A stretch of 59,404 nucleotides of DNA from Terrimicrobiaceae bacterium (GTDB lineage: Bacteria > Verrucomicrobiota > Verrucomicrobiia > Chthoniobacterales > Terrimicrobiaceae): the NCBI GenBank assembly GCA_044342325.1, contig JBIIPZ010000018.1, positions 1-59,404 on the forward strand, in the 5' to 3' direction. This document shows, in pieces, positions 2,705 through 56,629 of this stretch. Under the pieces are notes generated by a model, which was given only the letters and a program-made list of their open reading frames with translations, had not been told where the DNA came from and did no database searches. Within the stretch, counting starts at the first letter, position 1. Each line of letters starts with the position of its first letter. Position numbers and translations under genes: made by a program.

Positions 2705-4756
2705 ATGTCAACATCAAAACCCATTCTGTCACGAAGAATCCTCTCCCCCTGCCACTGCGAAGAACCCACAAGCGCTCGATTGCTCCAGGAACTGAGCAAA
2801 GCCGTCGAGTTGGATTTTAACGAAATTCACATCGGCGCAGCCATGCACGAGGAGGCGATTGGCAATTTGGACGGCTTCATCGAATATGAAGGCTGGCTGG
2901 AGAAAGCGAATGCCGGGCGTCCGATGAACCGGATCAGGCACCAGCGCGATGTGTTGAACGGATTCTGTGAAAAATCCCGCGCCGCCGGCGTGAAGACCTA
3001 CCTCTGGCACCACGAACTCTGGTTCCCCGATGCCGTGAAAAAGGCCTTTGCAAAGGAGTTCAAGGACGGACGCATCGACCCCACCGGCAAGTTCGCGGAA
3101 AATTACCTCGGCAGCCGCTTCAAGACCGCGCGCAAGCAGCTACCGCAACTCGACGGCCTCATTCTCACCCTCGCCGAAACGAGCCAGGTCGTTTATCAGG
3201 CCGACGCTCCCGAGAGCGAAATCATCGAGCAGACAACCGCCTTCTTAAAACTTCTGGACCGGAGTCTGCGCGAAGCGGGTTGGGATTATGTTCTCCGGCT
3301 CTTCTGCTGGGAGGAGAAGGAATACCGCATCATGAGCGGAGCGATTGCCCGTTTGCCGAAAAAGCCCGTGGTGATGATCAAGGCGGTTCCCTTCGACTGG
3401 CACATGCACTTTCCGGTGGACCCGGTCATCGCGAAATTTGGCGACTCAAACCTCATCGTCGAACTTGGCACCAACAACGAATACTGGGGCGTCAACCGCA
3501 TACCCTGCGCGAATCCGGACGACTACATCGGCTACCTCACCAAGGCGATGACTCTGGCGCCGAAAATGATCGGCGTGGCGGCCCGCACAGACCGCGATGA
3601 TGTGAGCGTGTGGGAGACGCCTAATGAAATCAATCTGCGCGCGGTATCCGCCGTTGCGCATGGTGTGCCCGTAACAGGAAAACAATTGGCCGAGGACTTT
3701 GCCGGCAAACGCTACGGAGTCGCCTCCATCGCCAGATTCGGCAAGTTGCTGCTCGGAACGGGTGAAGTCACAGCGGAGGGTTATTACGAGCGCGGGAGGC
3801 ATCTGAACGGCACTTACATCGGGCACCTCATCGGCACGCACAACCTCTTCCAGCAGGCGCGCGACCTGTTTTTCGAGCCGGGCGACACCGCATTCCACAA
3901 AGCCCGGCTGGAAGTGGAGGCCAAGGCCGCCAGCCTTCGCCGCGAACTGGAGGCAATGAAGCAGGAACTCTCGACGGCCGATCAACGGGACCTCGCCAAC
4001 TCGCTGGAGTTGCTTGAGGCGCTGGTGAAGGCGAACTCGCTGACCTGCGATGTCCTCTATGGCCTGCGTTGCTCGATGTATGACAGGGCTTGGCGGAGCG
4101 AGGCCAAGTGGAAGACCTGGAAAATGGAAACCTTGGATCTTGCAGATGCGGTCGAAAGAAAATTCGGCAGCGACTTGTTTGATTACGGCGTGTTCGCGCA
4201 GGGCATGGTCTATCCGGGCTCCCTCTCGAATCGTTTACGCCTTCTTGTGAAGCAGCAGGCCGAGGTTCTGAAAAAACTCGAGTTCCGCAAACCGGGGCCT
4301 GAACTCATTCAGAAAAAGCCCCTCTCCTACCAAGGCCGCAAGGCGTTTGAGTTGCCGATTGAGGGAATTCGCGTGAGCGCGAAGGCGGGCAAGAATCCCC
4401 TCGTGCTTGTGATGCAGGCCGGCTCGGAAATGGCCGTGACCCGCCCGCTACGATTCCGCGTGAATGGTGGGGCGGAGACCATCAAGCCGCTCGGCACATT
4501 CGGCTGGTTCAAATGCTGCGAGGGCTACCGCACCTATGAAATCGAGCTTCCCGCAACAAAGGGCGGTCTCGAAATCGAACTCGCATCGGCCGATCCGAAC
4601 CACCCCGTTCGCATCTCCTCACTCCGCTTCGAGGAGCGGATCAGCGGCACCCGGGGTGAGCTTCTCACCGATTATCGCGCCAATACGCATTTCCCTTGGG
4701 ATGCCGAAAAATTCAAGTCGCCCCGTAAATCGACCACCAAAAAGAAGACCTCGTGA
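2705..4756 (+). CDS. Hypothetical glycoside-hydrolase-like protein (possible GH67/GH115-like TIM barrel with C-terminal beta-sandwich)
   Basis: Long ORF with coherent codon usage; segments GVKTYLWHHE, LPQLDGLILTLAE, IKAVPFDW, NEYWG; located in the carbohydrate island. Confidence 0.5.
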   Translation: MSTSKPILSRRILSPCHCEEPTSARLLQELSKAVELDFNEIHIGAAMHEEAIGNLDGFIEYEGWLEKANAGRPMNRIRHQRDVLNGFCEKSRAAGVKTYLWHHELWFPDAVKKAFAKEFKDGRIDPTGKFAENYLGSRFKTARKQLPQLDGLILTLAETSQVVYQADAPESEIIEQTTAFLKLLDRSLREAGWDYVLRLFCWEEKEYRIMSGAIARLPKKPVVMIKAVPFDWHMHFPVDPVIAKFGDSNLIVELGTNNEYWGVNRIPCANPDDYIGYLTKAMTLAPKMIGVAARTDRDDVSVWETPNEINLRAVSAVAHGVPVTGKQLAEDFAGKRYGVASIARFGKLLLGTGEVTAEGYYERGRHLNGTYIGHLIGTHNLFQQARDLFFEPGDTAFHKARLEVEAKAASLRRELEAMKQELSTADQRDLANSLELLEALVKANSLTCDVLYGLRCSMYDRAWRSEAKWKTWKMETLDLADAVERKFGSDLFDYGVFAQGMVYPGSLSNRLRLLVKQQAEVLKKLEFRKPGPELIQKKPLSYQGRKAFELPIEGIRVSAKAGKNPLVLVMQAGSEMAVTRPLRFRVNGGAETIKPLGTFGWFKCCEGYRTYEIELPATKGGLEIELASADPNHPVRISSLRFEERISGTRGELLTDYRANTHFPWDAEKFKSPRKSTTKKKTS

Positions 4757-6882
4757 AATCAACGCATTCCATCGTCACCCTGCGTGCGTCCGAAGACAAG
4801 GACTCCGGGACGCATGCCGTGGTTTCGCTGCCATGGCCGGCCAACGAAAAAAGTGTTCCCTCATCGCCGGATGTCCTCCTCCAATGCATCGACCTTTTCC
4901 CCGATGCAGAGTCCCCCTCCATGAAGCGCCACTTCTGCCTGTTGCAGAATGACGCGGGACTCCCCAAGGAAATCCGTATCGAAAAAGACGACGCGCTGGC
5001 CAGCCACCCGCATGAGGTCACGATCAACTGGCACACGCTCCACGAGACTCTCGACAAGGAAAAATACACCTACTGCGAGCAGGAGGCGCGCCTCGACGAC
5101 GGAAAACGCTCGTTCGGGTTGAGACTCGGGTGGATGCTCCAAGGAACAGCCGGCACCTCGTCCGAGGATTTCACCTGGTGGCAATGGTGTGCAGCGGAAC
5201 CCGCATGGAGCGGACCGCTGGCCGAGGCGTGGAGGCTTGGAGGTTATCTCGCCACCTGCAGCCGCAATTCGGCAGGAGGCTTCCCGAAGCAAAATGGCTC
5301 AAACCTCCTCGAACTCAGCCGCCGCATCGTCGAGGAGCAAGGGGATGTGCTGCATGCCGATGTCTGGGTCATCTGGTGGCGAAGCGGTCTCGTGCAGCTG
5401 CGCGTGCACTTCAAAACGCCCTATTTCCATGTCGAGCCACGCCCGATGCACGGCTTCCCTGTCATCGCGCTCACAAACTCCGGCGCACTGCCCACGGAAG
5501 GAAACTTCTCCGACAACGAACTTCAGTTTCCATTTGGAAACGGACAGATCAGCCTGGAGCCGTCCGGACTCATGTTTGAGGAAAATTCCCAAGGTCGCTG
5601 GATGCATCCTGAAAACGGCACAGCCGTTCTGCAGCCTTGGAACGATCTTCGCGTTTTGGCCAACAAGGACCGCACCAACACGCACCATTACCTTCCGCCT
5701 GCCAGCACAGACACCATGCCGGAAGGCGTGTCGCGCAGTTTCAGCCTCAACATTTCCCTCGAAGGAGAAACCACCCCTGTCTCGCGCTACAGCGTGCCGC
5801 CAGAGTGGTATCGCACTTGTGGAGTCCTGACCTCCACCACGATCGGCGCGGCAACGCAAGCCGCATCGCGCGGGGCGGATTTGCTCAAATCCAACACCCG
5901 ACGGGGAGGATTCGACACAGGTTTTGTCTGGCGCTACCTGCGTCGCGACCTCCGAACCGGAACACCTGAGGAAGACGGCGCGGAGTGGGATGGCGACACA
6001 GCCGCAGGGCTTTGGACGCTTGCCTATCAAAAAGGAGAGGATCCCTCGCTGTTCTGGCCATTGTATGAGGCCATCGCGGTGCATGCTGCCGATATCGCCG
6101 TGCATCATGGCCGCTGCCTGCAACGCTTGGAAAACAGTGTCTCCTTCACGGCTCCGATGCCCAAGGCGCGCTTCCGGGGCATCCTGAACGCCTACCTCGA
6201 AACCGGCGACCCGTATTTGCTGGATGTCTGCACGGAACTTGCCTCCACCTACATCAATCTTCAAACGGCCAACCTGCCAAGAGTAGCGATCGGACGCGAT
6301 GCCTGGCCTGTGACGAGCCTGCTGGAATTGCACGACCACACTGCCGACGCCTTGTATTTGAGGGCCGCCCGGCGGATCATCCATGCCCTGCTCCGCACCC
6401 AGCAACCGGATGGAGGGTTCAGCAGCCAAGCCGGCGCTGGCCGCTTGTCCGGGATGTCCTCCATGCCATCCAAGGCCAGCATCGGCTTTGGAAGCGGGTT
6501 GCTTGCGCCGGTCGCGATCTTCGAGTGGGCACGCCGCGATTCAGAACACCTGCCCAAGGATTTTTCCCAAAGAGTCGTCAACTGGGCAAACCTCATGCGA
6601 GATTGCCTGCAGAAGGAGGGATACTGGAGCCAGAACCAGGAAATCCCGGTTCCTTATCCGCTAATCACCACCAGCGCCTTCTTCACATTCCCGCAAGCCG
6701 CAGGTTTCACAGAAGACCAAGGCCTCCTTGCCGTGCTCGGTAAAGCGGTGGAGTATTTGGAAAAAACCACGACCCATGTGAACGGCACCCACGCCTTTCT
6801 CGGTTGCCTCCATGCCCACTGGGCGGAGGCCAGCCTGACAAATCCCCCCGAACAAAAAAAACCAACCAGAAAAACCAACTAA
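4753..6882 (+). CDS. Hypothetical protein with a C-terminal (alpha/alpha)6-barrel-like domain (lyase/glycosidase-like)
   Basis: GTG start overlapping the previous stop (GTGA); helical-barrel repeats AYLETGDPYLLD, LHDHTADALYLRAA, TQQPDGGF. Confidence 0.5.
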   Translation: MKSTHSIVTLRASEDKDSGTHAVVSLPWPANEKSVPSSPDVLLQCIDLFPDAESPSMKRHFCLLQNDAGLPKEIRIEKDDALASHPHEVTINWHTLHETLDKEKYTYCEQEARLDDGKRSFGLRLGWMLQGTAGTSSEDFTWWQWCAAEPAWSGPLAEAWRLGGYLATCSRNSAGGFPKQNGSNLLELSRRIVEEQGDVLHADVWVIWWRSGLVQLRVHFKTPYFHVEPRPMHGFPVIALTNSGALPTEGNFSDNELQFPFGNGQISLEPSGLMFEENSQGRWMHPENGTAVLQPWNDLRVLANKDRTNTHHYLPPASTDTMPEGVSRSFSLNISLEGETTPVSRYSVPPEWYRTCGVLTSTTIGAATQAASRGADLLKSNTRRGGFDTGFVWRYLRRDLRTGTPEEDGAEWDGDTAAGLWTLAYQKGEDPSLFWPLYEAIAVHAADIAVHHGRCLQRLENSVSFTAPMPKARFRGILNAYLETGDPYLLDVCTELASTYINLQTANLPRVAIGRDAWPVTSLLELHDHTADALYLRAARRIIHALLRTQQPDGGFSSQAGAGRLSGMSSMPSKASIGFGSGLLAPVAIFEWARRDSEHLPKDFSQRVVNWANLMRDCLQKEGYWSQNQEIPVPYPLITTSAFFTFPQAAGFTEDQGLLAVLGKAVEYLEKTTTHVNGTHAFLGCLHAHWAEASLTNPPEQKKPTRKTN

Positions 6883-32009: not shown

Positions 32010-32672
32010 GGGCCCTCGAACCGCTTTGAACAACGGAATCGCTACCAGCATTCCGAGGACAGGTGCCACCAAGTAGATCCAGAGGTAATCAAGCTGTCCA
32101 GAGACGATGGCCGGGGCGAGTGAGCGGGCCGGGTTCATGGAGGCTCCGCAGATAGGGCCTGCGAAGAGGGCTTCGAGCGCGATGACTGCCCCAACCACGA
32201 TCCCGGCGGTGATTCCTTTTTCTTTGGCTCCTTGGGAAACGTTCAAGATGACGAACATCAGTATAGCAGACAAAATCACCTCTAGAACAAAGGACTGCAT
32301 TGGCAACCCGGCAGGAAGGGTTGCGCCCAGATTTCCGTTTTGTGGAAATAAAAAGTGAAGTGTGAGGCTCGCCAGTAATGCGCCTGAAAATTGAGCAGCG
32401 AGATAAATCAAGACGCTGAAAAATGGAAACAATCCTGCAACGGCAAAGGCTAGAGTTACCGCTGGATTCATGTGGGCACCCGACACATCACCAAGCGAAT
32501 AAATCATCACCAAAACAATGAGCCCGAATGTGAGTGCCACACCGAGGTGCGTAATGGCACCGCCAGACTCTGCATTAATAACAATGGCCCCGGTTCCGGC
32601 GAAAACCATGGCAAAGGTGCCGAGGAGCTCCGCAAAAAACTTACGGAGTGCGTCGAACTGGCTGGAACTCAT
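31998..32672 (-). CDS. MIP-family aquaporin/aquaglyceroporin (putative arsenite channel)
   Basis: SGAHMNPAV and [12 protein letters not shown] motifs; last gene of the ars operon. Confidence 0.9.
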
Positions 32673-39997: not shown

Positions 39998-40031
39998 ACC
40001 AAAATTTTGAACGATCGTCCAATTTTTTGGT
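39998..40031. repeat. 34-bp palindromic repeat, copy 1
   Basis: ACCAAAATTTTGAACGATCGTCCAATTTTTTGGT, 35 bp upstream of the PaaX-like start. Confidence 0.9.
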
Positions 40032-40066
40032 TTGCGCGTCCGGCACCGAATGCTACTCCACGCGGC

Positions 40067-40828
40067 ATGAAGCCAAAGACGGAGTTGTTTCTCTATACCT
40101 TGATGTGGGGCCTGAACATCATGGCGCGACCCACATTTCGCTCGATGGACCAATCTTTCGAAGGCTGGGCCTGGAGGCACGGACTCTTGAGACGGATTCA
40201 TCGCCTCGAGAACGAGGGTCTTATTTCACTCGATGAGAGCGTCGGAGAAAAAACAATCACCCTGACGCAAAAGGGAAAACTCCTCGCCCTCGGCGGCTTC
40301 GACACCGACGCGCTGTGGAACTGCAAATGGGACGGTAAGTGGAGGATCATCACCTTCGATCTCCCCGAGTCGCAACGCAAAGCCAGGCACGATCTCAGGC
40401 TCACCCTGCGGCACCAAAACTTCGGTTGCCTCCAACGCAGCATCTGGATCACCCCCCATCAACTGGATGCGAGCCTTCGTCAAAAAGGACTCCAGCTTAA
40501 AAGCCAAAAAGGATTCGCCATCATCGAAGGCGTATTTCTTGGAGACGCAGGTAACGAATCCATCGTCAAAAGCGCATGGGACTTCGCAAAGATCAACAAA
40601 CTCTACACGCGCCACGCTGAACTCCTCAAAATCGCCCCCAAACAAAAATGCACCGAGGCGGAGTTCAACGAATGGGCATCCGAGGAATTGAAACTCTGGC
40701 GCGAAATCCTGCACAGAGACCCGTTCCTCCCCCTGCAACTTCTTCCCAAAGGCTACAAAGGCATCAAAGCCCGGGATGAAAGACTGAAAGTGCTCGGCAC
40801 CCTCAAAAAACTCTTCATAGAAAAGTAG
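40067..40828 (+). CDS. PaaX-family protein: wHTH, Cas2-like central domain and PaaX C-terminal domain
   Basis: IHRLENEGLI...ITLTQKG (wHTH); WDGKWRIITFDLPE...R..LR..L....FGCLQRSIWITP (Cas2-like); AWDF..IN..Y and DPFLPLQLLP..YKG (PaaX_C). Confidence 0.85.
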   Translation: MKPKTELFLYTLMWGLNIMARPTFRSMDQSFEGWAWRHGLLRRIHRLENEGLISLDESVGEKTITLTQKGKLLALGGFDTDALWNCKWDGKWRIITFDLPESQRKARHDLRLTLRHQNFGCLQRSIWITPHQLDASLRQKGLQLKSQKGFAIIEGVFLGDAGNESIVKSAWDFAKINKLYTRHAELLKIAPKQKCTEAEFNEWASEELKLWREILHRDPFLPLQLLPKGYKGIKARDERLKVLGTLKKLFIEK

Positions 40829-40891
40829 AGCCTCTTCCCTGCACTCAGGAATCCGCCCCTACCTTACAGCCACTCCAGTTACCAAGCATGA

Positions 40892-40925
40892 ACCAAAAAT
40901 TTGAACGATCGTCCAAATTTTTGGT
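40892..40925. repeat. 34-bp palindromic repeat, copy 2
   Basis: ACCAAAAATTTGAACGATCGTCCAAATTTTTGGT. Confidence 0.9.
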
Positions 40926-41002
40926 CGCCCTGGAATTGTTATCTGGTCTGCATCTGAAGGGAAATATGCGGTTTTTTTGAGACTTGGTTACGGTTTTTAA
41001 TA

Positions 41003-41036
41003 ACCAACTTTTTGGACGATCGTCCAAATTTTTGGT
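41003..41036. repeat. 34-bp palindromic repeat, copy 3
   Basis: ACCAACTTTTTGGACGATCGTCCAAATTTTTGGT; starts 111 bp after copy 2. Confidence 0.9.
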
Positions 41037-41074
41037 CGTGACGATGGGAGCGGCGCAGGCTTTGGGTGCGGCGG

Positions 41075-41962
41075 TTAATTTGTTTCGAAGTGGTCCCAGC
41101 CTCCGGGCCAGTTGGGGGGGGCGGGTTGAGGGGGCGTGAGGGTGCCGATGGGAGTAAGGCGGGTTTTTGGGAAGGCGGTGGGCCAGCTTTTTTGAAGGAG
41201 AGGAGCTTTTGAGGGGGGGATGGCGAGGAGGAGTTCGTAGTCTTCGCCGTCGGAGAGGGCGGATTCGATGTCGGATCCTTTGCGGCGGGGGATGGACTCG
41301 CGGTTGACTTCAAATCCGCATCCGCTGGCTCTGGCGAGGCGGGGGAGGTCGGTGCCGAGTCCATCGCTGATATCCATAATCGCAGAGGGATGGATATTTT
41401 TCGCGAGCCATTGGCCTTCTTTGAGCCGGGGGATGAAGTTGAGGTGGTGGCCTGCGATGGAGCCGCCGAGTCGTCCTGTGACGAAGAGCAGGTCGCCTGG
41501 CTTTCCGCCGGAGCGCGTGAGCAGGTGCTTGGAGTCGATGTGTCCGGTGAGCATGACCGAGACGGCTATGCCTTGTTTTTGGCGGGACATTTCGCCGCCG
41601 GCGATGGTGACGCCAAAGCGGCGGGCGGCGCGGCCAAGTCCACGGTAGAATTTTTTCCAATAGGAAGAATCGAGGTCGGGGGGCGAAAAGAAGGTGATGA
41701 GGGCTTGGTCAGGTGTGCCTCCCATGGCGGCGATATCGCTCAGAGGACGGCAGAGCGCCTTCCAACCGACTTTGGCGGGATCATGTGAACGGAGAAAATG
41801 AACATCCTCTGCGATGCAATCCGTTTTGAGCAGAATAAGCGTGCCGGGTTTTCCACACTTGATGGCGGCGCAGTCGTCCCCCGGGCCGAGCGGTTGATCT
41901 TGCGGAACGGGCACGAGGCGCAGGAGTTCGTGGAGCAGTTTGTCCTCGGCGCAGAGTTTCAT
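41075..41962 (-). CDS. thiL: Thiamine-monophosphate kinase
   Basis: GPGDDCA, KTD...DVHF, LSDIAAMGG, DISDGL, GEDYELL. Confidence 0.93.
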   Translation of the reverse strand: MKLCAEDKLLHELLRLVPVPQDQPLGPGDDCAAIKCGKPGTLILLKTDCIAEDVHFLRSHDPAKVGWKALCRPLSDIAAMGGTPDQALITFFSPPDLDSSYWKKFYRGLGRAARRFGVTIAGGEMSRQKQGIAVSVMLTGHIDSKHLLTRSGGKPGDLLFVTGRLGGSIAGHHLNFIPRLKEGQWLAKNIHPSAIMDISDGLGTDLPRLARASGCGFEVNRESIPRRKGSDIESALSDGEDYELLLAIPPSKAPLLQKSWPTAFPKTRLTPIGTLTPPQPAPPNWPGGWDHFETN

Positions 41963-42744
41963 TTCATGAGGTCGGGCCACTGGAGTGTGCCGTAAATACT
42001 GAGTCCGTTGAAGGCGGCATGCAGGAGTATGGGAGCCCAGAGCGAGCCTGTCTTCTCATACAAAAGTGAGAGGCCCACAGCCAGAATGACCAATCCGGCA
42101 AGCGATGGGATGTGTCCATGGATGAGAGCAAACAATATGGAGGTGACGGCAATGGCCACAAACCTTCCGCCGGTCTGCCTGAGAAATCCGTAGAGGCATC
42201 CTCGAAAGATGAGTTCCTCGGTGAGGGGCGCTGCAACGACGGCTATTAAAATGACAGAGAGGCGATCGCGGAGGCTCTGATGTTCGATCAGGAAGGAGAC
42301 AATCGGCTGGGGTTCGGTTTGAGGTCCAGACAAGGAATATCCGATCCACTGTGCTGCGTAGATCGGCGGCAGGAGTAGAGCCAGAGCCAAGACCACAGCT
42401 ACGAGTCCATGACGCCAGGAAGTCCAGCGCAGCCCGAATGCCTCGATGGGGTTTATGTTTCGAAAAACAAGAAATCCGACGACGAAGAGAATGATCGATG
42501 CGTAGAGCCCGAGCGCGGACTCGATGGCCTTCAGGTCGATCCGGCCAGGAGGGCCTGTGAAGGAGGGAATAGCCATCAAAAGGAAAAAAAGCACGACGCC
42601 TGCTGTGAGCAGGGATTCCGGCCATTTCCAAACTTGCGTGGGGAAGGAATCCCCATGTGCCAAAGCCGACCTCGCGGCTCGCGAAGCCACCTTCAGGTAG
42701 ATGAGCCCGAGGAGGAGCAGGATGGCAATTTTCAGAGACTCCAT
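41959..42744 (-). CDS. CPBP-family (CAAX/Abi) intramembrane metalloprotease
   Basis: APLTEELIFRG, FALIH, LYEKTGSLWAPILLHAAFN. Confidence 0.88.
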   Translation of the reverse strand: MESLKIAILLLLGLIYLKVASRAARSALAHGDSFPTQVWKWPESLLTAGVVLFFLLMAIPSFTGPPGRIDLKAIESALGLYASIILFVVGFLVFRNINPIEAFGLRWTSWRHGLVAVVLALALLLPPIYAAQWIGYSLSGPQTEPQPIVSFLIEHQSLRDRLSVILIAVVAAPLTEELIFRGCLYGFLRQTGGRFVAIAVTSILFALIHGHIPSLAGLVILAVGLSLLYEKTGSLWAPILLHAAFNGLSIYGTLQWPDLMK

Positions 42745-45184: not shown

Positions 45185-46747
45185 TCAGGCGTTGGCGCGC
45201 AGACCGTAAAACTCGTAGCTATCCACAAGCGCAAGCCAACTGGCCTCGATGATATTGTCCGAGACCCCTACCGTGCCCCAGGTCGTGTGGCCATCGGTTG
45301 AAACAATGAGGACGCGGGTCTTGGCGGCTGTGCCGCGTGTGCCGTCGATGATGCGGACCTTGTAGTCTGTGAGGCGGACTTGATCGATCCAGCTGTAAAA
45401 AGGCCGCAAAGACTTGCGCAGGGCGGCGTCGAGGGCATTCACGGGACCGTCCCCCTCCTCGACCGTGTATTCGGCGCGACCGGAAGCGTGGAGTTTGACC
45501 GTGGCTTCACAGGTTGTGAACTCATGCTGGTTCGATTGACGGAACGAGCAGTGGTATTCTTTGAGATCGAAGAGAGGGGTGTGGCGGCCCAGCGTGCGGC
45601 GGATGAGGAGCGCGAAGGAGGCGTCTGCCGCCTCGAACTCGTAGCCTTGGGCTTCGATCTCCTTCACTTTTTTTAAGATGGTCGAGACTTCAGGCGCGCC
45701 TTTTTGGAATTCGAATCCGAGCTCGGCAGCTTTTGCGAGAATGTTGCTCTGGCCTGACATGTCCGAGACAAGGATCGTCTGTGAGTTGCCAACAAGTCTT
45801 GGATCCATGTGCTCATAGGTGCGGGAAATTTTCTGAACGGCATGAACATGGAGACCGCCTTTGTGCGTGAAGGCCGCCGTGCCGACATACGGGGCCCGGA
45901 TGTCCTGCGGCACATTCGCCAACTCATCGACGAAGCGGGAAACTTCGCGCAGTGCGGTGAGATCAGGCACGCAGGGGATTCCCATTTTCACCTGCAGCGT
46001 TGGAACGATCGTCGTGAGGTTGCAATTTCCCACGCGTTCGCCGTAGCCGTTGATGGTTCCCTGAACCTGACAGGCTCCGGCTTCGATGGCCGCGAGGGCG
46101 TTTGCGACGCCGAGTCCGCAGTCATTGTGGGTATGGATGCCGACCGGGCATTTGAGATCGGCGATCACGGCAGAGGTGATGCGGTGAATTTCGCCGGGAA
46201 GAGTTCCGCCGTTTGTGTCGCAGAGCACGAGCAGATCTGCTCCGGCATCCCTCGCGGCGCGGAGTGTTTGCAGGGAATACTCGGGATTGTCCTTGTAGCT
46301 GTCGAAAAAATGTTCGGCATCATAGAAGACTTCGCGGCCGTGTTTTTTGAGATGGGCCACCGTATCGGCGATCATGGACAAGTTCTCCTCGGCAGTGACA
46401 TTGAGAACCTCTGTGACATGCAGGATCCATGTCTTGCCGACGATGGTGACGACCGGCGTTTGCGCCTCCAAAAGCACGCGCACTTGGGCATCCGCCTCAA
46501 CCGCAATGCTGCCGCGACGGGTGCTACCGAAAGCAGCAATGCGGGCATTTTTCCAAGTGAGCTTGGCCGCCTCGGCAAAGAAAGCCGCATCGCGAGGATT
46601 CGATCCAGGCCAACCGCCTTCGATGAAATCGACCCCAAAGGAATCCAACTTTTGAGCCACGCGAATTTTGTCGAGGATGGAAAAAGAAATCCCCGTGCCT
46701 TGGGTGCCGTCGCGCAGCGTGGTGTCGTAAATGGTGACCGGTTTCAT
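45185..46747 (-). CDS. cimA: Citramalate synthase
   Basis: YDTTLRDGTQ, IEGGWPGSNP, YDAEHFFD, HTHND, NGYGERVGN, AFTHKGGLH, GDGPVNALD. Confidence 0.92.
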   Translation of the reverse strand: MKPVTIYDTTLRDGTQGTGISFSILDKIRVAQKLDSFGVDFIEGGWPGSNPRDAAFFAEAAKLTWKNARIAAFGSTRRGSIAVEADAQVRVLLEAQTPVVTIVGKTWILHVTEVLNVTAEENLSMIADTVAHLKKHGREVFYDAEHFFDSYKDNPEYSLQTLRAARDAGADLLVLCDTNGGTLPGEIHRITSAVIADLKCPVGIHTHNDCGLGVANALAAIEAGACQVQGTINGYGERVGNCNLTTIVPTLQVKMGIPCVPDLTALREVSRFVDELANVPQDIRAPYVGTAAFTHKGGLHVHAVQKISRTYEHMDPRLVGNSQTILVSDMSGQSNILAKAAELGFEFQKGAPEVSTILKKVKEIEAQGYEFEAADASFALLIRRTLGRHTPLFDLKEYHCSFRQSNQHEFTTCEATVKLHASGRAEYTVEEGDGPVNALDAALRKSLRPFYSWIDQVRLTDYKVRIIDGTRGTAAKTRVLIVSTDGHTTWGTVGVSDNIIEASWLALVDSYEFYGLRANA

Positions 46748-50242: not shown

Positions 50243-50653
50243 ATGAAAAAAGCCATCGGCATTGATCTTGGCGACGCCCGCGTGGGGGTTGCAATAAGCG
50301 ACGATCTCGGAATGCTCGCACATCCGCTCGAAACGATCCCAACAAAGTCCAGCGATGTGCTCAAACGCGTCCTCGCGCTCGCAACCGAACGCGGTGCGGG
50401 AACGATCGTCGTCGGCATGCCGAGAAACATGAACGGCACCTTCGGACCTGCTGCGGAGAAAGCGAAGGCCTTTATCGATGAACTCCGGCGTGAAACCACG
50501 ATCCCAGTTGTTTCTTGGGATGAAAGAATGACCACGGTCTCAGCGCAGCGTGCGCTGCAGGAGGCAGGCCGAAACACCAGAAAGCAACGCCCCGTAATCG
50601 ACCAAGTCGCCGCCCAGATTATTCTTCAAAGCTGGCTCGATTCGCAGGGATGA
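50243..50653 (+). CDS. ruvX: YqgF/RuvX pre-16S rRNA nuclease
   Basis: IGIDLGDARVGVAISD, VVGMP, WDERMTT, IDQVAAQIILQSWLD. Confidence 0.93.
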   Translation: MKKAIGIDLGDARVGVAISDDLGMLAHPLETIPTKSSDVLKRVLALATERGAGTIVVGMPRNMNGTFGPAAEKAKAFIDELRRETTIPVVSWDERMTTVSAQRALQEAGRNTRKQRPVIDQVAAQIILQSWLDSQG

Positions 50654-52556: not shown

Positions 52557-53723
52557 ATGCGCGATCTTTTTCTTTGGTTTGTGGCAGGCGAGGAGAGTGG
52601 CGATGCACGCGCTGTGGAGGTCATGCAAGCCATCAAAGCGCAACACCCGTCCGTGATCTTCGGAGGCGCTGGCGGCAACGCCATGCAGAAGTTGTGCGAA
52701 CAGCAATTCGACAACTGGGTGCAGCAAGCGGCTGTAACCGGTTTGTGGGATGTTTTGAAAAACTACGGCTACTTCAGGCAAAAGTTCCACGCGATGCTGG
52801 CCGCCATCCGCGAAAAAAAACCAGACGCTGTCGTGCTCGTCGATTATCCCGGCTTCAACCTTCGCCTCGCGCGAACACTCAGAAATACCGGCTACCAAGG
52901 CAAAATTCTCTACTACATTAGCCCCCAGGTCTGGGCATGGAACCGGGGGCGCATCCCGAAGATGGCGCGTTTCCTGGATCTCATGATCTGCGTCTTTCCC
53001 TTCGAGGCTCCGATGTATCAGGCCAGCGGACTGCACACCGTCTTCGTAGGACATCCCCTGCTGGAAGCCCTCGCAGCCAAGCGCGGGGGGATCCATCGCG
53101 AACCGAATTTGCTCGGACTTTTTCCAGGCAGCAGGGAACGCGAAGTGAAACGGAATTTTCCAGTGATGCTCGAGGCGGCTCGTTTGGTGGCCGAGAAAAT
53201 GCCAGGCATCCGCTTCGAAGCCTCGGCCGCAGGCAGCGCACGCGCCGAAAGCATGCGCAAGTTGGCCGCCGGATTTCCCGTCGAAATCCGCGAGGGTAAC
53301 GCCCACGAACTAATGCAACGCGCCACGGCAGGCATCGTCTGCTCCGGAACAGCAACGCTGGAGGCTGCCTTTTTTGGCCTACCCTACTGCCTTATCTACA
53401 AAACAGCCTGGCTCACATTCGAAATCGGCAAACGGCTTGTAGATGTCAACGCGCTGGGAATCGTCAATATCCTGAACAACTACCGCCTGAACCCTCCCGA
53501 AAATCCGGCCCTACCTGCCAAGCCCGCTCCCCATCTCGTTCGGGAATTCATCCAAAACGACGCCGCACCGGAAGCCCTCGCCAAAGAATCCCTCCGTCTC
53601 CTACAAAGCGAATCCACCCGCGAAAAACTCCGCTCCCAACTCACCACCATCACCTCCCTGCTCAAAGCCGAAGGCGCCAGCGAACGAAGCGCAACCACCC
53701 TGCTCCGCAGCCTACAGGCTTAA
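52557..53723 (+). CDS. lpxB: Lipid-A-disaccharide synthase
   Basis: VAGEESGD, VDYPGFN, YYISPQVWAW, FVGHPL, PGSR, SGTATLE. Confidence 0.95.
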   Translation: MRDLFLWFVAGEESGDARAVEVMQAIKAQHPSVIFGGAGGNAMQKLCEQQFDNWVQQAAVTGLWDVLKNYGYFRQKFHAMLAAIREKKPDAVVLVDYPGFNLRLARTLRNTGYQGKILYYISPQVWAWNRGRIPKMARFLDLMICVFPFEAPMYQASGLHTVFVGHPLLEALAAKRGGIHREPNLLGLFPGSREREVKRNFPVMLEAARLVAEKMPGIRFEASAAGSARAESMRKLAAGFPVEIREGNAHELMQRATAGIVCSGTATLEAAFFGLPYCLIYKTAWLTFEIGKRLVDVNALGIVNILNNYRLNPPENPALPAKPAPHLVREFIQNDAAPEALAKESLRLLQSESTREKLRSQLTTITSLLKAEGASERSATTLLRSLQA

Positions 53724-53756
53724 CCAAAAAAATGAACGATCGTTCATTTTTTTGGT
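53723..53756. repeat. 34-bp palindromic repeat, copy 4 (perfect palindrome)
   Basis: ACCAAAAAAATGAACGATCGTTCATTTTTTTGGT; begins within the lpxB stop codon. Confidence 0.9.
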
Positions 53757-53833
53757 CTTTTATAAAACATTATTGGCCAGTTTTATGTGTTTTATTTTTC
53801 TTTTTTTCGAAAGTATTTTTGGCCCCATTTTGA

Positions 53834-53867
53834 ACCAAAAATTTGGACGATCGTCCAAATTTTTGGT
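53834..53867. repeat. 34-bp palindromic repeat, copy 5 (perfect; extends to 38 bp, 53832-53869)
   Basis: ACCAAAAATTTGGACGATCGTCCAAATTTTTGGT; starts 111 bp after copy 4. Confidence 0.9.
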
Positions 53868-53911
53868 TCGCGCTGGGGAGGTTGAACTGTGCGCAGGAGA
53901 AGTTGGTTTTA

Positions 53912-56629
53912 TTACGCGAGGCGGAGGACGAGTTTAAGGGCATCGGCTCGCACGGTGGCGGATTCTATGGCTTCGAGGAGTGAAGTTTTGAGGGTTTGAA
54001 GTGCTTCGATTTCGCCGGGGCGGATGTGGTTGTTGATGAGTCGCAGGTCTTCGAGGCGTTCGATTTCGGCTGTGATTTGATCCGAGGCTTTTTGGCGGGC
54101 GGTTTGGATGATGGCTTCCTTGCGGGCGGCGGCGAATTCGGATGCCTTGGCGAGCATGGAGGGAAGATGCTTTTTCTTGAAGACGGGAGTGTCGAGGAGC
54201 GTGAAGACATCGCCTGTTTCTAGGACTGCGTTGCGGAATTCGTCATCGTCGCCGCAATCTTTGAGAGACTGATCGACTACAATTCGCAGGGGTGTCGCAG
54301 GGAGGAAGCGGTCGGCATGCAAGGATGGTGGGGCGATGGATTCGATGACGAAGTGGGCTTCGAGAAGGATTCCATCAGCTTGAGCGGATTTCCAAACACT
54401 GAAAACCGAGTTGCCGGTTTCCATTCCGAGGATGGCATCAAGGGCTGCGAGAACGAGTGGGTGGTCGGGGGTGACGAAGCCGATGTCTTCGCGGGATAGG
54501 GCGCGACTGCGTTGGAAGGTCACCATCGTTCCCTCGGCGGCGAGACCGGGAAGTGTGGCGGTTTGGGATCCACCGCTCTTGAGCAGATAACTCCGCAGGC
54601 CGAGTTCCTCAACCTGAACTCCTAAATGGTCGAGCATTCGGATGAAGAAGGATTCGTAGTCGGAATCGGCATCTTGGCGCTGAATGGCCTCGATGAGTGG
54701 TTTTGCGATTTCCGGGCGGTTGGAGTTGAGTTCGAGAAGCCGATCGTGGCCGCCTTGCAGGCGTTTGGTGATTTTTTTGGCTTCAGCCGAGGTTTCCTTA
54801 ATGAGGGTGGCCAATTCAGCAGGCGTGAAATTTTCAGCGACAGCTTGGATTTTTTCTCCAAATCGAAGCATGAGGTCGGAGGCACCATGGGGAATTTTCT
54901 GAAAGGCGTCGAGCGCCTCGTGATACCAGTGGGCGAGCACATGGGCGCGCGTGCCTTCCTCGAACGGAACATGGATATGGATTGTCGATGTCTGGCCGAT
55001 ACGGTCGAGGCGGCCGATGCGTTGTTCCAGCAGCTCGGGGTTGTCAGGCAGGTCGAACAGGACGAGGTGGTGGGCGAATTGAAAATTGCGTCCCTCGCTG
55101 CCGATTTCGGAGCAAATGAGCAAGCGGGCGCCGTCCTCCTCGGCGAAGTAGGCGGCGTTGCGGTCGCGCTGGAGGAGGGTGAGTCCCTCGTGGAAGACGG
55201 CCGCGGCGATTTTGATCTCCTTCTGGAGGCTGTTCAGAATATCGGTGGCCGTATCCGGCGATTTACAAATCACGAGAACCTTTTGCTTCTTGAGTTCCTT
55301 GAGGAGGGCGATCAACCAACGAATCTTTGCGGCAGATTCGTTCGGCTCGGGAGCCAGCGGGGCCAAGTGGGCCTTGCGTTTCGGGAAGCCAGAGAGGGCG
55401 GCGCGGGTGTTTCGGAAAATAACTCTCCCCGTGCCGTATTCGTCGAGCAGCGCCGCAACCACCCGGTCGCGCGCGGAGACATCACCCGCCAAGAATTCAG
55501 CATAGTGACCAGCTACTCGCGTGCCTTTAAAAATCGAGGTGTTGGGGATTTTCTTTCCCGCCAGCAAGGCGTCGATGGATTTTGCGACGGACTCGTAGTG
55601 GTCGGATTCCTTGAGAAAGACATCCAGGTCATCGTAGCGGTTTGGGTCGAGAAGGCGGAGGCGCGCAAAATGGCCTTCCATGCCGAGTTGTTGTGGGGTC
55701 GCGGTGAGAAGAAGAAGCGAGGATGCGGCGACAGCGAGGGATTCGACGAGCTGATATTCCAGCCCGGCTTCTTTCGGCGACCATTGGAGATGGTGTGCCT
55801 CGTCCACGACCAAGAGATCCCACCCGGCCTCGCGCGCTTGAGCGGCTCGCTTCGGGTTTTTCGAGAGAAAATCGAGCGCACAAATGACAAGCTGGCTGTC
55901 GAGAAAGGGATTGGCTCCCTCGAGTTCGAGCGAGGCGCAGCGGTCTTCATCAAAAATGCTGAAGGACATCTGGAACCGGCGGAACATTTCCACGAACCAC
56001 TGGTTGAGCAGCGCGGGAGGCAGGAGAATCAGGATGCGACCAGCTCGGCCTGTGATGTGCAGGCGATGCAGGATAAGACCGGCTTCGATGGTTTTTCCAA
56101 GACCCACCTCATCTGCAAGAAGGACACGGGGATTCATACGGGAGGAGACATCGGCAGCGATGGAAATCTGGTGTGGAATGAGGTCCACGCGTCCACCGGC
56201 AAAGCCGCGCACTGGGCTTTGGCGCATCTCACGGCGGCGGTGGAGACACTCCACACGGAGTTTGAAACGCTCAAGTTCATCGACCTGTCCAGCGAGGAGA
56301 CGGTCTTCAGGTTTCGAAAAAGTGATATTATCGGAAAGCTCCGCCTCGGCGACATCCCTCGACCCACAGCGATAGGTCAGCAGACCACCGGCATCGGTTA
56401 TGGAGTCCACATGGAGGCTCTCGCCGGAGTGTGTGCGGACGGAGTCACCCTCCTTGAAGGCGACACGCCGAACGGGTGCGCTGCCAAGTGCGTATTGGCG
56501 GTGCTCGCCTGCGGCGGGGAAAAAAATCTCGGCCCGGCCAAACTCGCTCTTCAGAACAATTCCGAGTCCAAGCTCGGGTTCGGTATCGCTGACCCAGCGT
56601 TGACCGGGGACTGGAGTGATTTTGCTCAT
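53912..56629 (-). CDS. rapA: RNA polymerase-associated SNF2-family ATPase RapA
   Basis: PGQRWVSDTEPELGLG, LADEVGLGKT, VDEAHH, LTATP, SEIGSEGRNFQ, EQRIGRLDRIGQ, DRLLELNS. Confidence 0.93.
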   Translation of the reverse strand: MSKITPVPGQRWVSDTEPELGLGIVLKSEFGRAEIFFPAAGEHRQYALGSAPVRRVAFKEGDSVRTHSGESLHVDSITDAGGLLTYRCGSRDVAEAELSDNITFSKPEDRLLAGQVDELERFKLRVECLHRRREMRQSPVRGFAGGRVDLIPHQISIAADVSSRMNPRVLLADEVGLGKTIEAGLILHRLHITGRAGRILILLPPALLNQWFVEMFRRFQMSFSIFDEDRCASLELEGANPFLDSQLVICALDFLSKNPKRAAQAREAGWDLLVVDEAHHLQWSPKEAGLEYQLVESLAVAASSLLLLTATPQQLGMEGHFARLRLLDPNRYDDLDVFLKESDHYESVAKSIDALLAGKKIPNTSIFKGTRVAGHYAEFLAGDVSARDRVVAALLDEYGTGRVIFRNTRAALSGFPKRKAHLAPLAPEPNESAAKIRWLIALLKELKKQKVLVICKSPDTATDILNSLQKEIKIAAAVFHEGLTLLQRDRNAAYFAEEDGARLLICSEIGSEGRNFQFAHHLVLFDLPDNPELLEQRIGRLDRIGQTSTIHIHVPFEEGTRAHVLAHWYHEALDAFQKIPHGASDLMLRFGEKIQAVAENFTPAELATLIKETSAEAKKITKRLQGGHDRLLELNSNRPEIAKPLIEAIQRQDADSDYESFFIRMLDHLGVQVEELGLRSYLLKSGGSQTATLPGLAAEGTMVTFQRSRALSREDIGFVTPDHPLVLAALDAILGMETGNSVFSVWKSAQADGILLEAHFVIESIAPPSLHADRFLPATPLRIVVDQSLKDCGDDDEFRNAVLETGDVFTLLDTPVFKKKHLPSMLAKASEFAAARKEAIIQTARQKASDQITAEIERLEDLRLINNHIRPGEIEALQTLKTSLLEAIESATVRADALKLVLRLA

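Follow-up and report, generated by a model that had tools for sequence, protein, structure and literature searches.

In a contig of a freshwater Terrimicrobiaceae bacterium of the Verrucomicrobiota (JBIIPZ010000018.1, assembly GCA_044342325.1), a stretch of 59,404 nucleotides that was analyzed at its full length and is referred to here as the window, a 34-bp palindrome occurs five times, and four of its copies form two doublets with the same 111-bp period. These doublets belong to a family that is distributed over related genomes; within it, the distance between the two palindromes is sharply peaked, the spacer keeps its length while its sequence drifts, tracts of T recur in the spacers, apparently in a shared phase, and the presence of the palindromes goes with that of a gene for a PaaX-like protein, which is itself located in the window. 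The reading that we favor, tentatively and with somewhat less than even confidence, is that the doublet is a two-site nucleoprotein module of the PaaX-like protein, with the two sites positioned ten helical turns apart.

A 34-bp palindrome recurs in doublets of fixed spacing

The palindrome has the consensus ACCAAAAATTTGGACGATCGTCCAAATTTTTGGT, which is often extended to CGAACC...GGTTCG, and its copies in the window start at 39998, 40892, 41003, 53723 and 53834. Copies 2 to 5 (40892–40925, 41003–41036, 53723–53756 and 53834–53867) are perfect palindromes, and none of 100 shuffles of the window yielded a match to the consensus. Doublet A, made up of copies 2 and 3, is located between the convergent PaaX-like gene (40067–40828, plus strand) and thiL (41075–41980, minus strand); doublet B, made up of copies 4 and 5, is likewise enclosed by convergent genes, with lpxB (52557–53723, plus strand) to its left and rapA (53912–56629, minus strand) to its right. 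Both doublets measure 111 bp from start to start and both spacers measure 77 bp, at 40926–41002 in doublet A (GC content 0.40) and at 53757–53833 in doublet B (AT-rich, GC content 0.26), in a genome with a GC content of 56.5%. The distances and coordinates, re-measured here, and the identities of the flanking genes agree with those proposed earlier from the letters of the window alone, in what we call the sequence-only reading.

In doublet A, copy 2 deviates from the consensus by one mismatch, and copy 3 is a variant with three mismatches, one arm of which reads ACCAACTTTTTGG; copy 2 thus has two partners, copy 3 at 111 bp and, on its other side, copy 1, with which it forms an 894-bp bracket. 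In doublet B, copy 4, a variant of the form A7-TGAACGATCGTTCA-T7, has its first base in common with the final base of the lpxB stop codon. Its six substitutions relative to the consensus constitute three symmetric pairs, so that a perfect palindrome results again, and the same variant is the consensus palindrome of a more distant species (G015). Copy 5 is canonical, with no mismatches; its dyad extends to 53832–53869, and it is situated 45 bp from the rapA stop codon. Two GAACGATCGTCG 12-mers elsewhere in the window (46003–46014 and 50400–50411) resemble the palindrome core and are devoid of palindromic arms; core-like 12-mers are within chance, with eight matches against a shuffle mean of 3.8 and 3 of 100 shuffles reaching eight.

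The window's own genome (G000), an assembly of 78 contigs and 2.93 Mb that is 86% complete, possesses 21 copies of the palindrome on 13 contigs. Pairs closer than 1 kb are 111, 111, 111, 189, 339 and 894 bp apart. The third 111-bp doublet resides on contig C66, where the arms of the partner copy differ yet are self-complementary (GCAAACTTTTT..AAAAAGTTTGC). Under a uniform null of 35–400 bp, the probability that three of the five pairs below 400 bp have an identical distance is ~7e-5. Across 11 genomes, G000 and ten relatives, coordinate lists and fetched loci returned 30 pairs at 110 or 111 bp: five in G001, four each in G004, G024 and G048, three each in G000 and G044, two each in G007 and G047, and one each in G017, G041 and G050. 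The pairs fall into seven locus groups, denoted A (PaaX-like/thiL), B (lpxB/rapA), C (the C66 type) and D to G, and the 1-bp differences in spacing occur in homopolymer runs. Other distances below 500 bp make up eight groups (141, 174/175, 189–193, 247/475, 250, 261/266, 339 and 375 bp); for seven of 15 locus groups to fall in one 2-bp bin, the upper-bound P is 3e-10. The 111/111 match in the window is not due to chance, and the survey of inter-repeat distances that the sequence-only reading had proposed reveals a sharp peak. No pair at 110 or 111 bp is present in G015 and G049, each with ~20 sites, and no helical-phase rule was found for the other pair distances (141–475 bp).

All three 111-bp doublets of G000 combine a copy bearing at most one mismatch with a copy bearing at least three, and both copies are perfect in each of the 189- and 339-bp pairs. 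Perfect copies constitute 6 of 10 singlets versus 2 of 6 members of the 111-bp doublets. In a first draw of genomes, 6 of 24 congeners had the palindrome and none of 16 genomes from the order's other families did; it is restricted to part of one genus. G000 also harbors a half-copy between two co-oriented genes (C42:21258–21281), whose right arm has given way to AAAAAACTGCTC and whose left arm and core are preserved. A further two long palindromes rich in GATC, AAGATCGGTCGGATCGGTCTGATCAGACGGATCCGACCGATCTT at C40:64742–64785 and a 30-mer at C40:65004–65033, are 260 bp apart and unrelated to the family described here.

As origins of the doublet layout, two candidates were ruled out: insertion of a miniature inverted-repeat transposable element into the center of an older palindrome, as in doublets B and C the variant is one entire palindrome rather than the inner arms alone, and tandem duplication of a palindrome together with its flank, as the spacer is unlike the DNA past the second palindrome. 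A recombination site of the lox/FRT type would fit the length of the palindrome (13+8+13=34), but the core, ACGATCGT, is symmetric rather than asymmetric.

Spacers conserve their length while their sequence drifts

Pairwise Smith-Waterman alignment of the five spacers of G000 (20 comparisons) furnished nothing significant (best p 0.047). Each doublet group nevertheless possesses, beside one of its palindromes, a motif of ~12 nt that resembles CTTTTGTAAAAT and gives the doublet a polarity. In doublet B the motif reads CTTTTATAAAAC (53757–53768) and assigns the spacer to the plus strand; in doublet A the polarity is that of the minus strand, and the motif end adjoins copy 3. When seven independent spacers were oriented in this manner and compared without gaps, pooled identity peaked at register 0 (0.367 versus a background of ~0.29), with side maxima at offsets 10–11. 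The first 14 columns account for an identity of 0.53 versus 0.30 expected, and the columns beyond them for 0.33 versus a compositional expectation of 0.30.

The T-tracts, which are ~11 bp apart in the spacer of doublet B, and the A/T tracts recur with a period of 11–11.5 bp that is in phase across loci. Against a circular-shift null, the phase returned p=0.0003 over all columns and, after removal of the first 14 columns, p=0.03 for T and p=0.002 for A/T; these values derive from seven spacers, with the orientation chosen by the motif, and from several tests. Phase-locked T-tracts common to the spacers are thus suggestive. The sequence-only reading had described the two window spacers as dissimilar, which holds for pairwise local alignment and does not hold once the spacers are oriented and the end motif and tract phase are seen to be shared. 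It had also named diverged homology of the spacers as an outcome that would count against it; the shared motif and phase fit either common descent or common function.

The spacer of doublet B is 76 or 77 bp long in all eight orthologues. Its identity to the G000 spacer is 0.81–0.95 in close species; in G024 it is 0.60, with 0.89 for the adjacent rapA and 0.91 for the second palindrome. As a length of 76–77 bp is maintained in eight of eight orthologues while identity drops to 0.60, the sequence of the spacer is weakly constrained and its length strongly constrained, just as had been supposed from the window alone. Spacers of the other distance classes have an ordinary GC content of 0.43–0.59 and do not contain the motif.

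Given the repeat-spacer-repeat layout, the constant spacer length and a neighboring gene with a Cas2-like domain, we weighed a record akin to a CRISPR array or to cassettes, in which the 77-bp spacers would be captured foreign DNA of fixed length. Two paralogous doublets of G024, which share palindrome variants and spacer ends and differ in the spacer middle, would also be in line with capture. This explanation, offered as an alternative in the sequence-only reading, is rejected as extremely unlikely: orthologous spacers are conserved, more than two repeats never follow one another at the 111-bp period, and Cas1 was not found in G000 (86% complete). The palindrome and both doublets gave no match among viral contigs, phages and plasmids, and no second copy of a spacer was found elsewhere in G000; the searches that had been suggested for captured DNA thus leave capture unsupported. 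The sole regular array encountered, with a period of 177 bp in G043, is a plain tandem repeat of 94% identical units.

A second possibility is that the doublet constitutes a small RNA gene, with the TTGTAAAAT-like motif acting as a -10 element, the ~60-nt variable spacer as the body of the transcript and the second palindrome as its terminator. The fixed place of the motif beside one palindrome would agree with such a gene, as would the tendency of the second palindrome of oriented doublets to allow G-U pairing and to precede T-runs. A single metatranscriptome run matched 0.07 of the stretch and yielded a 98-nt contig at 53767–53865 and two contigs on rapA, with none on lpxB, which hints that the spacer of doublet B is present in RNA. 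This run was polyA-selected and is available as contigs without strand; the 98-nt contig has a depth of 2.5, its right end falls inside the repeat, and the library could have captured the A-rich opposite strand. No consistent -35/-10 pair was apparent, with 0 promoter-like sites in a scan and none by eye. Rfam returned 0 matches at the gathering score in the whole window and, over 53600–54000, sub-threshold miRNA-like hairpin noise only. Folding of both strands of seven spacers (14 folds) revealed no excess structure (z -2.2 to +1.5), and the spacers lack a stable or conserved fold. A small RNA gene is on these grounds very unlikely. Nor do the spacers contain a conserved reading frame; coding by the spacer of doublet B was ruled out, its ATG-led frame being broken or shifted in G001 and G017.

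A PaaX-like gene accompanies the palindromes

The gene adjoining doublet A encodes a protein of 253 aa with PaaX_M (Cas2-like) and PaaX_C domains; its N-terminus probably forms a winged helix. Pfam matches were obtained to PF20803 (7.8e-20) and PF08223 (2e-06). An AlphaFold2 model (predicted local distance difference test, pLDDT, 76) has E. coli PaaX (8a39, E=4.8e-10) as its best solved match in Foldseek, followed by 3kfw and 3l09, and a profile search of the PDB agrees with the PaaX match (2.7e-13). The protein is PaaX-like in fold and is not a phenylacetate regulator, because its score of 53.5 bits is far below the cut-off of 264.55 for the NCBIfam PaaX equivalog (TIGR02277) and because paaA/paaC (PF05138) were not found in G000, which is 86% complete. 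The stretch WRIITFDLPE...FGCLQRSIW aligns to positions 2–44 of the NCBIfam Cas2 model (E=0.007, below the cut-off); within it, Asp98 is invariant in 13 of 13 aligned homologues, and we take the equivalent position of Cas2 to have a catalytic role. In a protein atlas, PaaX-like neighbors of ~250 aa occur in candidate-phyla bacteria, and some of their clusters are auto-named Cas2.

The gene is bracketed by palindromes. Copy 1 (39998–40031; three mismatches to the consensus) precedes the start codon by 35 bp, in the intergenic region between the divergent gltX and PaaX-like genes, and is a candidate auto-operator whose position is retained in 10 relatives that possess the gene; copy 2 follows 64 bp after the stop codon. 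This bracket, 893–903 bp wide, is kept in all gene-bearing relatives (G001, G004, G015, G023, G024, G044, G047, G048 and G050). Distant homologues in the genus are flanked by differing palindromes that are centered on CGATCG: TTTTTGTCCGATCGGACAAAAA in G046 (57% identity, 7 copies in the genome), ..GGCCGATCGGCC.. in G043 (55%, 35 copies) and ..GGCCGATCGGAC.. in G012 (54%, 17 copies), where copies were counted with a single GTCC-type pattern at up to two mismatches. G056 encodes two paralogues (36% and 34% identity) with palindromes of CACCGATCGGTG and GACGATCGGC cores; it has one match to the GTCC-type pattern and 55 sites of the generic pattern described below.

In a survey of the order's other genera, a homologue was encountered in 10 of 81 sampled genomes, G000 included. 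A long palindrome is present within six of the eight homologue loci that were scanned, and none was detected at the threshold used at the G077 and G100 loci. The palindrome is ~40–55 bp upstream of the gene at four of the eight loci, and at two an identical palindrome occurs on both sides of the gene, TTACCGATTATTGATGCGGCCGCATCAATAATCGGTAA in G075 (10 genome sites, including one pair 118 bp apart) and ACAATCTTTGTCCCGGCCGGGACAAAGATTGT in G110b (three genome sites). Within the genus, sites were counted in 41 genomes with a generic pattern of five A/T, four arbitrary positions, CGATCG, four arbitrary positions and five A/T. Each of the 15 homologue-bearing genomes contains 6–55 such sites; of the 26 without, 21 have 0–2, two have four and three have 14–24 (Fisher p=1e-8, a value that is overstated since the genomes are related).

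Sequence variation among the palindromes was examined in 45 distinct palindromes representing 162 instances, 48 of which are one exact 34-mer. Pairs 2, 11 and 14–16 show little or no variation. Plain mismatches, mostly in the A/T arms, make up 77 of the 161 pair cells that deviate from the consensus, 55 are compensated changes and 29 are G-T/A-C cells, and this pattern would fit protein contacts combined with some symmetry-restoring process better than it would an obligatory hairpin. Sites change in concert and in place, as the G024 sites at three orthologous loci bear the ACA..TGT signature of that species. In G043 (contig C5, locus L101, 2025–3386), the lineage palindrome (..TTTTTGGCCGATCGGCCATTTTT..) is also contained, together with a second motif, CGATCGATC, in each unit of a tandem array of 7.7 copies of 177 bp with 94% matches; a separate 42-bp tandem repeat of 9.7 copies is located at 4895–5301 of the same locus.

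A model of paired binding sites

In the model that we favor, each 34–40 bp palindrome would be a candidate site of dyad symmetry to which the PaaX-like winged-helix protein would bind as a dimer. The doublet would then pair a canonical, strong site with a diverged, auxiliary one, at 110–111 bp from center to center, which would amount to ~10 helical turns if the ~11-bp period of the T-tracts within the spacer is taken as one turn. With a non-coding, AT-rich and bendable spacer between them, a pair of bound dimers could form a bridge and loop or wrap the DNA. In that case, the length of the spacer, its phase and the motif at one end would be under selection, and the remaining sequence would be free. 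At convergent gene ends, the module may have an architectural or insulating role or may control the promoter-like motif within the loop. Binding by the PaaX-like protein, cooperativity, looping and an effect on transcription are what we infer. A geometry-dependent protein complex was among the options of the sequence-only reading, and it is favored by the spacing peak and because spacer length is conserved while spacer sequence drifts.

The paired looping operators gal OE/OI and lac O1/O3 consist of dyad sites ~90–115 bp apart, one of which is stronger, with a spacing that is limited by helical phase and with bendable DNA in between. The doublets are similar in their two dyad sites, one of them canonical, and in the bendable intervening DNA; they differ in that the module occurs at seven loci with different spacers, mostly at convergent gene ends, and in that looping is here presumptive. 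Bacterial interspersed mosaic elements (BIMEs) and the related RIP elements of enterobacteria are pairs of REP sequences (repetitive extragenic palindromes) joined by fixed linker motifs, some with a site for integration host factor (IHF), and their linkers are conserved in sequence. Two palindromic units with a fixed-length linker at gene 3' ends are common to those elements and the doublets, and binding of nucleoid proteins is a BIME/RIP feature; unlike BIME linkers, the spacers described here drift in sequence, and no IHF-type consensus was noticed in them, no dedicated test having been made.

The gene and its palindromes can also be compared with PaaX itself. A site in the gene's own promoter region parallels PaaX autoregulation. 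The fold (Foldseek, profile search) and the wide inverted half-sites spanning ~38–40 bp are shared with PaaX of E. coli and Pseudomonas; in the review PMC9493321, the E. coli operator is given as TGATTC(N27)GAATCA, similar in scale to GAACCA-N26-TGGTTC of the palindrome. Unlike PaaX, the protein is shorter, scores below the equivalog cut-off, gives no Pfam match at its N-terminus and comes from a genome in which paaA/paaC were not found, and its ~20 near-identical sites are situated by unrelated housekeeping genes.

Several observations weigh against the paired-site model. Of ~16–17 palindrome contexts in G000, nine are convergent gene ends (p ~0.01, with crude calls of open reading frames, ORFs), where no promoter needs control; four are divergent promoter regions. 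At 14 loci outside the window, the 28 neighboring ORFs (21 with a Pfam match and seven without) are functionally unrelated. As they have no common function, the palindrome set is no ordinary pathway regulon, and a regulon would not usually have ~20 sites that are nearly identical over 34–40 bp. The model of the N-terminal winged helix is of low confidence (pLDDT 43–55 at residues 1–40), and the Pfam model of the PaaX N-terminus gives no match to the protein. The small set of oriented spacers behind the phase result, noted above, belongs here as well. Finally, G007, G017 and G049 have no homologue yet possess 14–24 generic sites. G007 (96% complete) keeps 25 sites, none of them core-mutated, and two 111-bp doublets, and G017 (56% complete) keeps 15 sites, two of them mutated; since these sites are largely intact without the gene, either the gene was lost recently or the sites persist without the PaaX-like protein.

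The history of loss can be read from the loci themselves. In G007 and G017, gltX and thiL are adjacent, a deletion having removed the PaaX-like gene together with doublet A (locus L131, G007:C76, ~32331–32353; locus L133, G017:C116, ~3903–3933; both syntenic to 40014–41065 of the window). Of palindrome 1, precisely the left half (...CGAACCAAAAATTTGGACG) is retained at the junction, and unrelated DNA follows it; this therefore represents one deletion, common to the two genomes and broken at the palindrome center. G049 has a single intact palindrome between gltX and thiL and no pair at 110 or 111 bp. Its core is substituted at 6 of 20 sites, versus 2 of 50 in G048 and G041 together (p=0.005), a decay that would be expected once the binder had been lost.

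The prevalence of convergent gene ends is also what is to be accounted for if the palindromes are back-to-back bidirectional intrinsic terminators, their identity being maintained by gene conversion or template switching and their spacing by common descent. Among the palindrome copies of the window, a terminator scan flagged only copy 4, at the end of lpxB, which has a stem of 15 pairs and a run of T; several variants are composed of a stem and T8 in one direction, and the 55 compensated and 29 G-T/A-C cells among the arm changes would also be compatible with a transcribed stem. On the other hand, the canonical copy 5 was not flagged, sites occur in the four divergent promoter regions too, and at C39:63536 a classical GC-rich terminator is already in place ahead of the palindrome. 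The 77 uncompensated mismatch cells stand beside invariant, specific bases, and neither the co-variation with the gene nor the constant spacer length is explained by termination. We regard this account as quite unlikely. Terminator and small RNA roles may be compatible with paired binding sites, as they may be with the repeat-based explanation that follows.

Gain and loss of sites and the case for a selfish repeat

The junction between lpxB and rapA varies among relatives. The doublet is present in G000, G001, G004, G017, G047 and G050, and in G044 and G024 it is preceded by 1.1–1.3 kb of extra DNA. G015 and G055 have one palindrome of the A7/T7 type, which is the genome-wide consensus of G015, and G049 has one canonical palindrome. 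In G007, G014, G023 and G045, the junction is empty, with the stop codons 6–43 bp apart. Similarly, on contig C47 of G000, the sequences that flank the 174-bp pair elsewhere adjoin each other, the pair being absent. Because the junction is filled in some relatives and empty in others, and because the 174-bp pair is absent in G000, palindrome sites have been gained and lost over time; neither a target duplication nor an excision footprint is visible when empty and filled sites are compared. This comparison of the junction in relatives had been proposed in the sequence-only reading, and it bears out variation in presence and absence.

The extra DNA between lpxB and the doublet (G044, G024 and G048) was considered as palindrome-bounded cassettes and proved to consist of ordinary ORFs. 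One of these, which in G044 separates the lpxB stop codon from the doublet (contig C152, locus L040, 1949–2986), encodes 345 aa with a helix-turn-helix-like N-terminus; at a guess, it resembles a transposase of an insertion sequence. At a locus of G001 (C499, L023) syntenic to C46:21898, three palindromes, 247 and 475 bp apart, replace the single one that follows queA in G000, and the repetition of the queA-side flank between them points to a local tandem duplication that included the palindrome.

The palindromes, whose presence at orthologous loci varies, may be regarded as selfish repeats: in place of a REP-associated tyrosine transposase (RAYT), the PaaX-like protein with its Cas2-like domain would disperse them and keep them uniform, perhaps as a 145-bp doublet unit similar to a REPIN (a REP doublet), and copies that persist after gene loss would be fossils. 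Several findings argue for this explanation. The palindrome is specific to each lineage and to each paralogue; within-genome copies are nearly identical, with 48 of the 162 instances being the one exact 34-mer; next-neighbor distances are sharply peaked; convergent gene ends are enriched; the G007/G017 deletion is broken exactly at a palindrome center; and G049, devoid of the gene, has decayed sites and no doublets. The invariant Asp98 in the stretch aligned to the N-terminus of the Cas2 model (below the cut-off, as given above) would fit a catalytic protein. We know of no catalytic activity for PaaX-type proteins, however, and there are only 3–55 copies per genome. The doublet loci are orthologous across species with 6–14% divergence of the flanking genes, without a sign of recent transposition, and no target-site duplication distinguishes filled from empty sites. 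Doublet copies are less canonical than singlets, and the spacers form no hairpin. As each repeat unit is self-complementary, an inverted orientation of the doublet members is meaningless.

The true RAYT-like genes of G000 are, moreover, unrelated to the palindrome. Three Y1_Tnp (PF01797) genes are encoded, at C70:85171, C52:26097 and C9:58623; contigs C70 and C52 carry no palindrome, and on C9 the nearest one is 17 kb from the Y1_Tnp gene. The sequence-only reading had interpreted the doublet as a REPIN-like, non-autonomous mobile unit, and this interpretation is not supported, given the absence of Y1_Tnp genes near palindromes, the unfolded spacers, the orthology of the loci and the low copy number. 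In its general form, with the PaaX-like protein as the agent of dispersal, a selfish repeat, the main rival of the paired-site model, is unlikely.

A detailed comparison can be made with Pseudomonas fluorescens SBW25, where, according to Bertels and Rainey (2011; PMC3116915), REPs occur as singlets and as doublets with preferred distances of 71 and 110 bp and REPIN doublets are better conserved than singlets. The two systems have in common extragenic palindromic repeats in singlets and doublets at sharply preferred distances, a spacer less conserved than the repeats, a lineage-specific repeat, and a single-copy gene that has its cognate repeat to either side (PMC3116915). The gene in question is PaaX-like, winged-helix and Cas2-like here and encodes an HUH (Y1) transposase there. 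Here the single repeat is already a perfect palindrome of 34 bp, present in tens of copies instead of hundreds, and, unlike in REPINs, the doublet spacer is unfolded, doublet copies are less conserved than singlets and loci are orthologous across species.

A partnership parallel to that of RAYTs and REPINs can also be envisaged, in which the PaaX-like protein, beyond binding, would maintain, homogenize or move its own dispersed palindromes. Across the order, each lineage of the protein would have its own perfect palindrome of 32–40 bp in 3–55 copies per genome, one clade would assemble copies into length-ruled 111-bp doublets, and the protein might cut at the CGATCG/CGGCCG center. The deletion breakpoint at a palindrome center and the concerted change of the G024 sites fit this proposal, which we nonetheless judge to be improbable.

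Implications

At the level of listings, full-text searches of the literature returned no report that links PaaX-like proteins with dispersed palindromes and no description of REP-like repeats in these Verrucomicrobia. Transposition, as in REPINs, has until now been the explanation for repeat doublets of fixed distance, and here the same signature occurs without the transposase. The spacers, constant in length and not in sequence, point instead to a ruler of a structural kind that a DNA-binding protein sets, the position taken in the paired-site model. The link between PaaX-like proteins and palindromes extends over several lineages of the genus and two other genera of the order, and it offers, for the Verrucomicrobiota, a testable candidate for a new protein family with an architectural or repeat-maintaining role.

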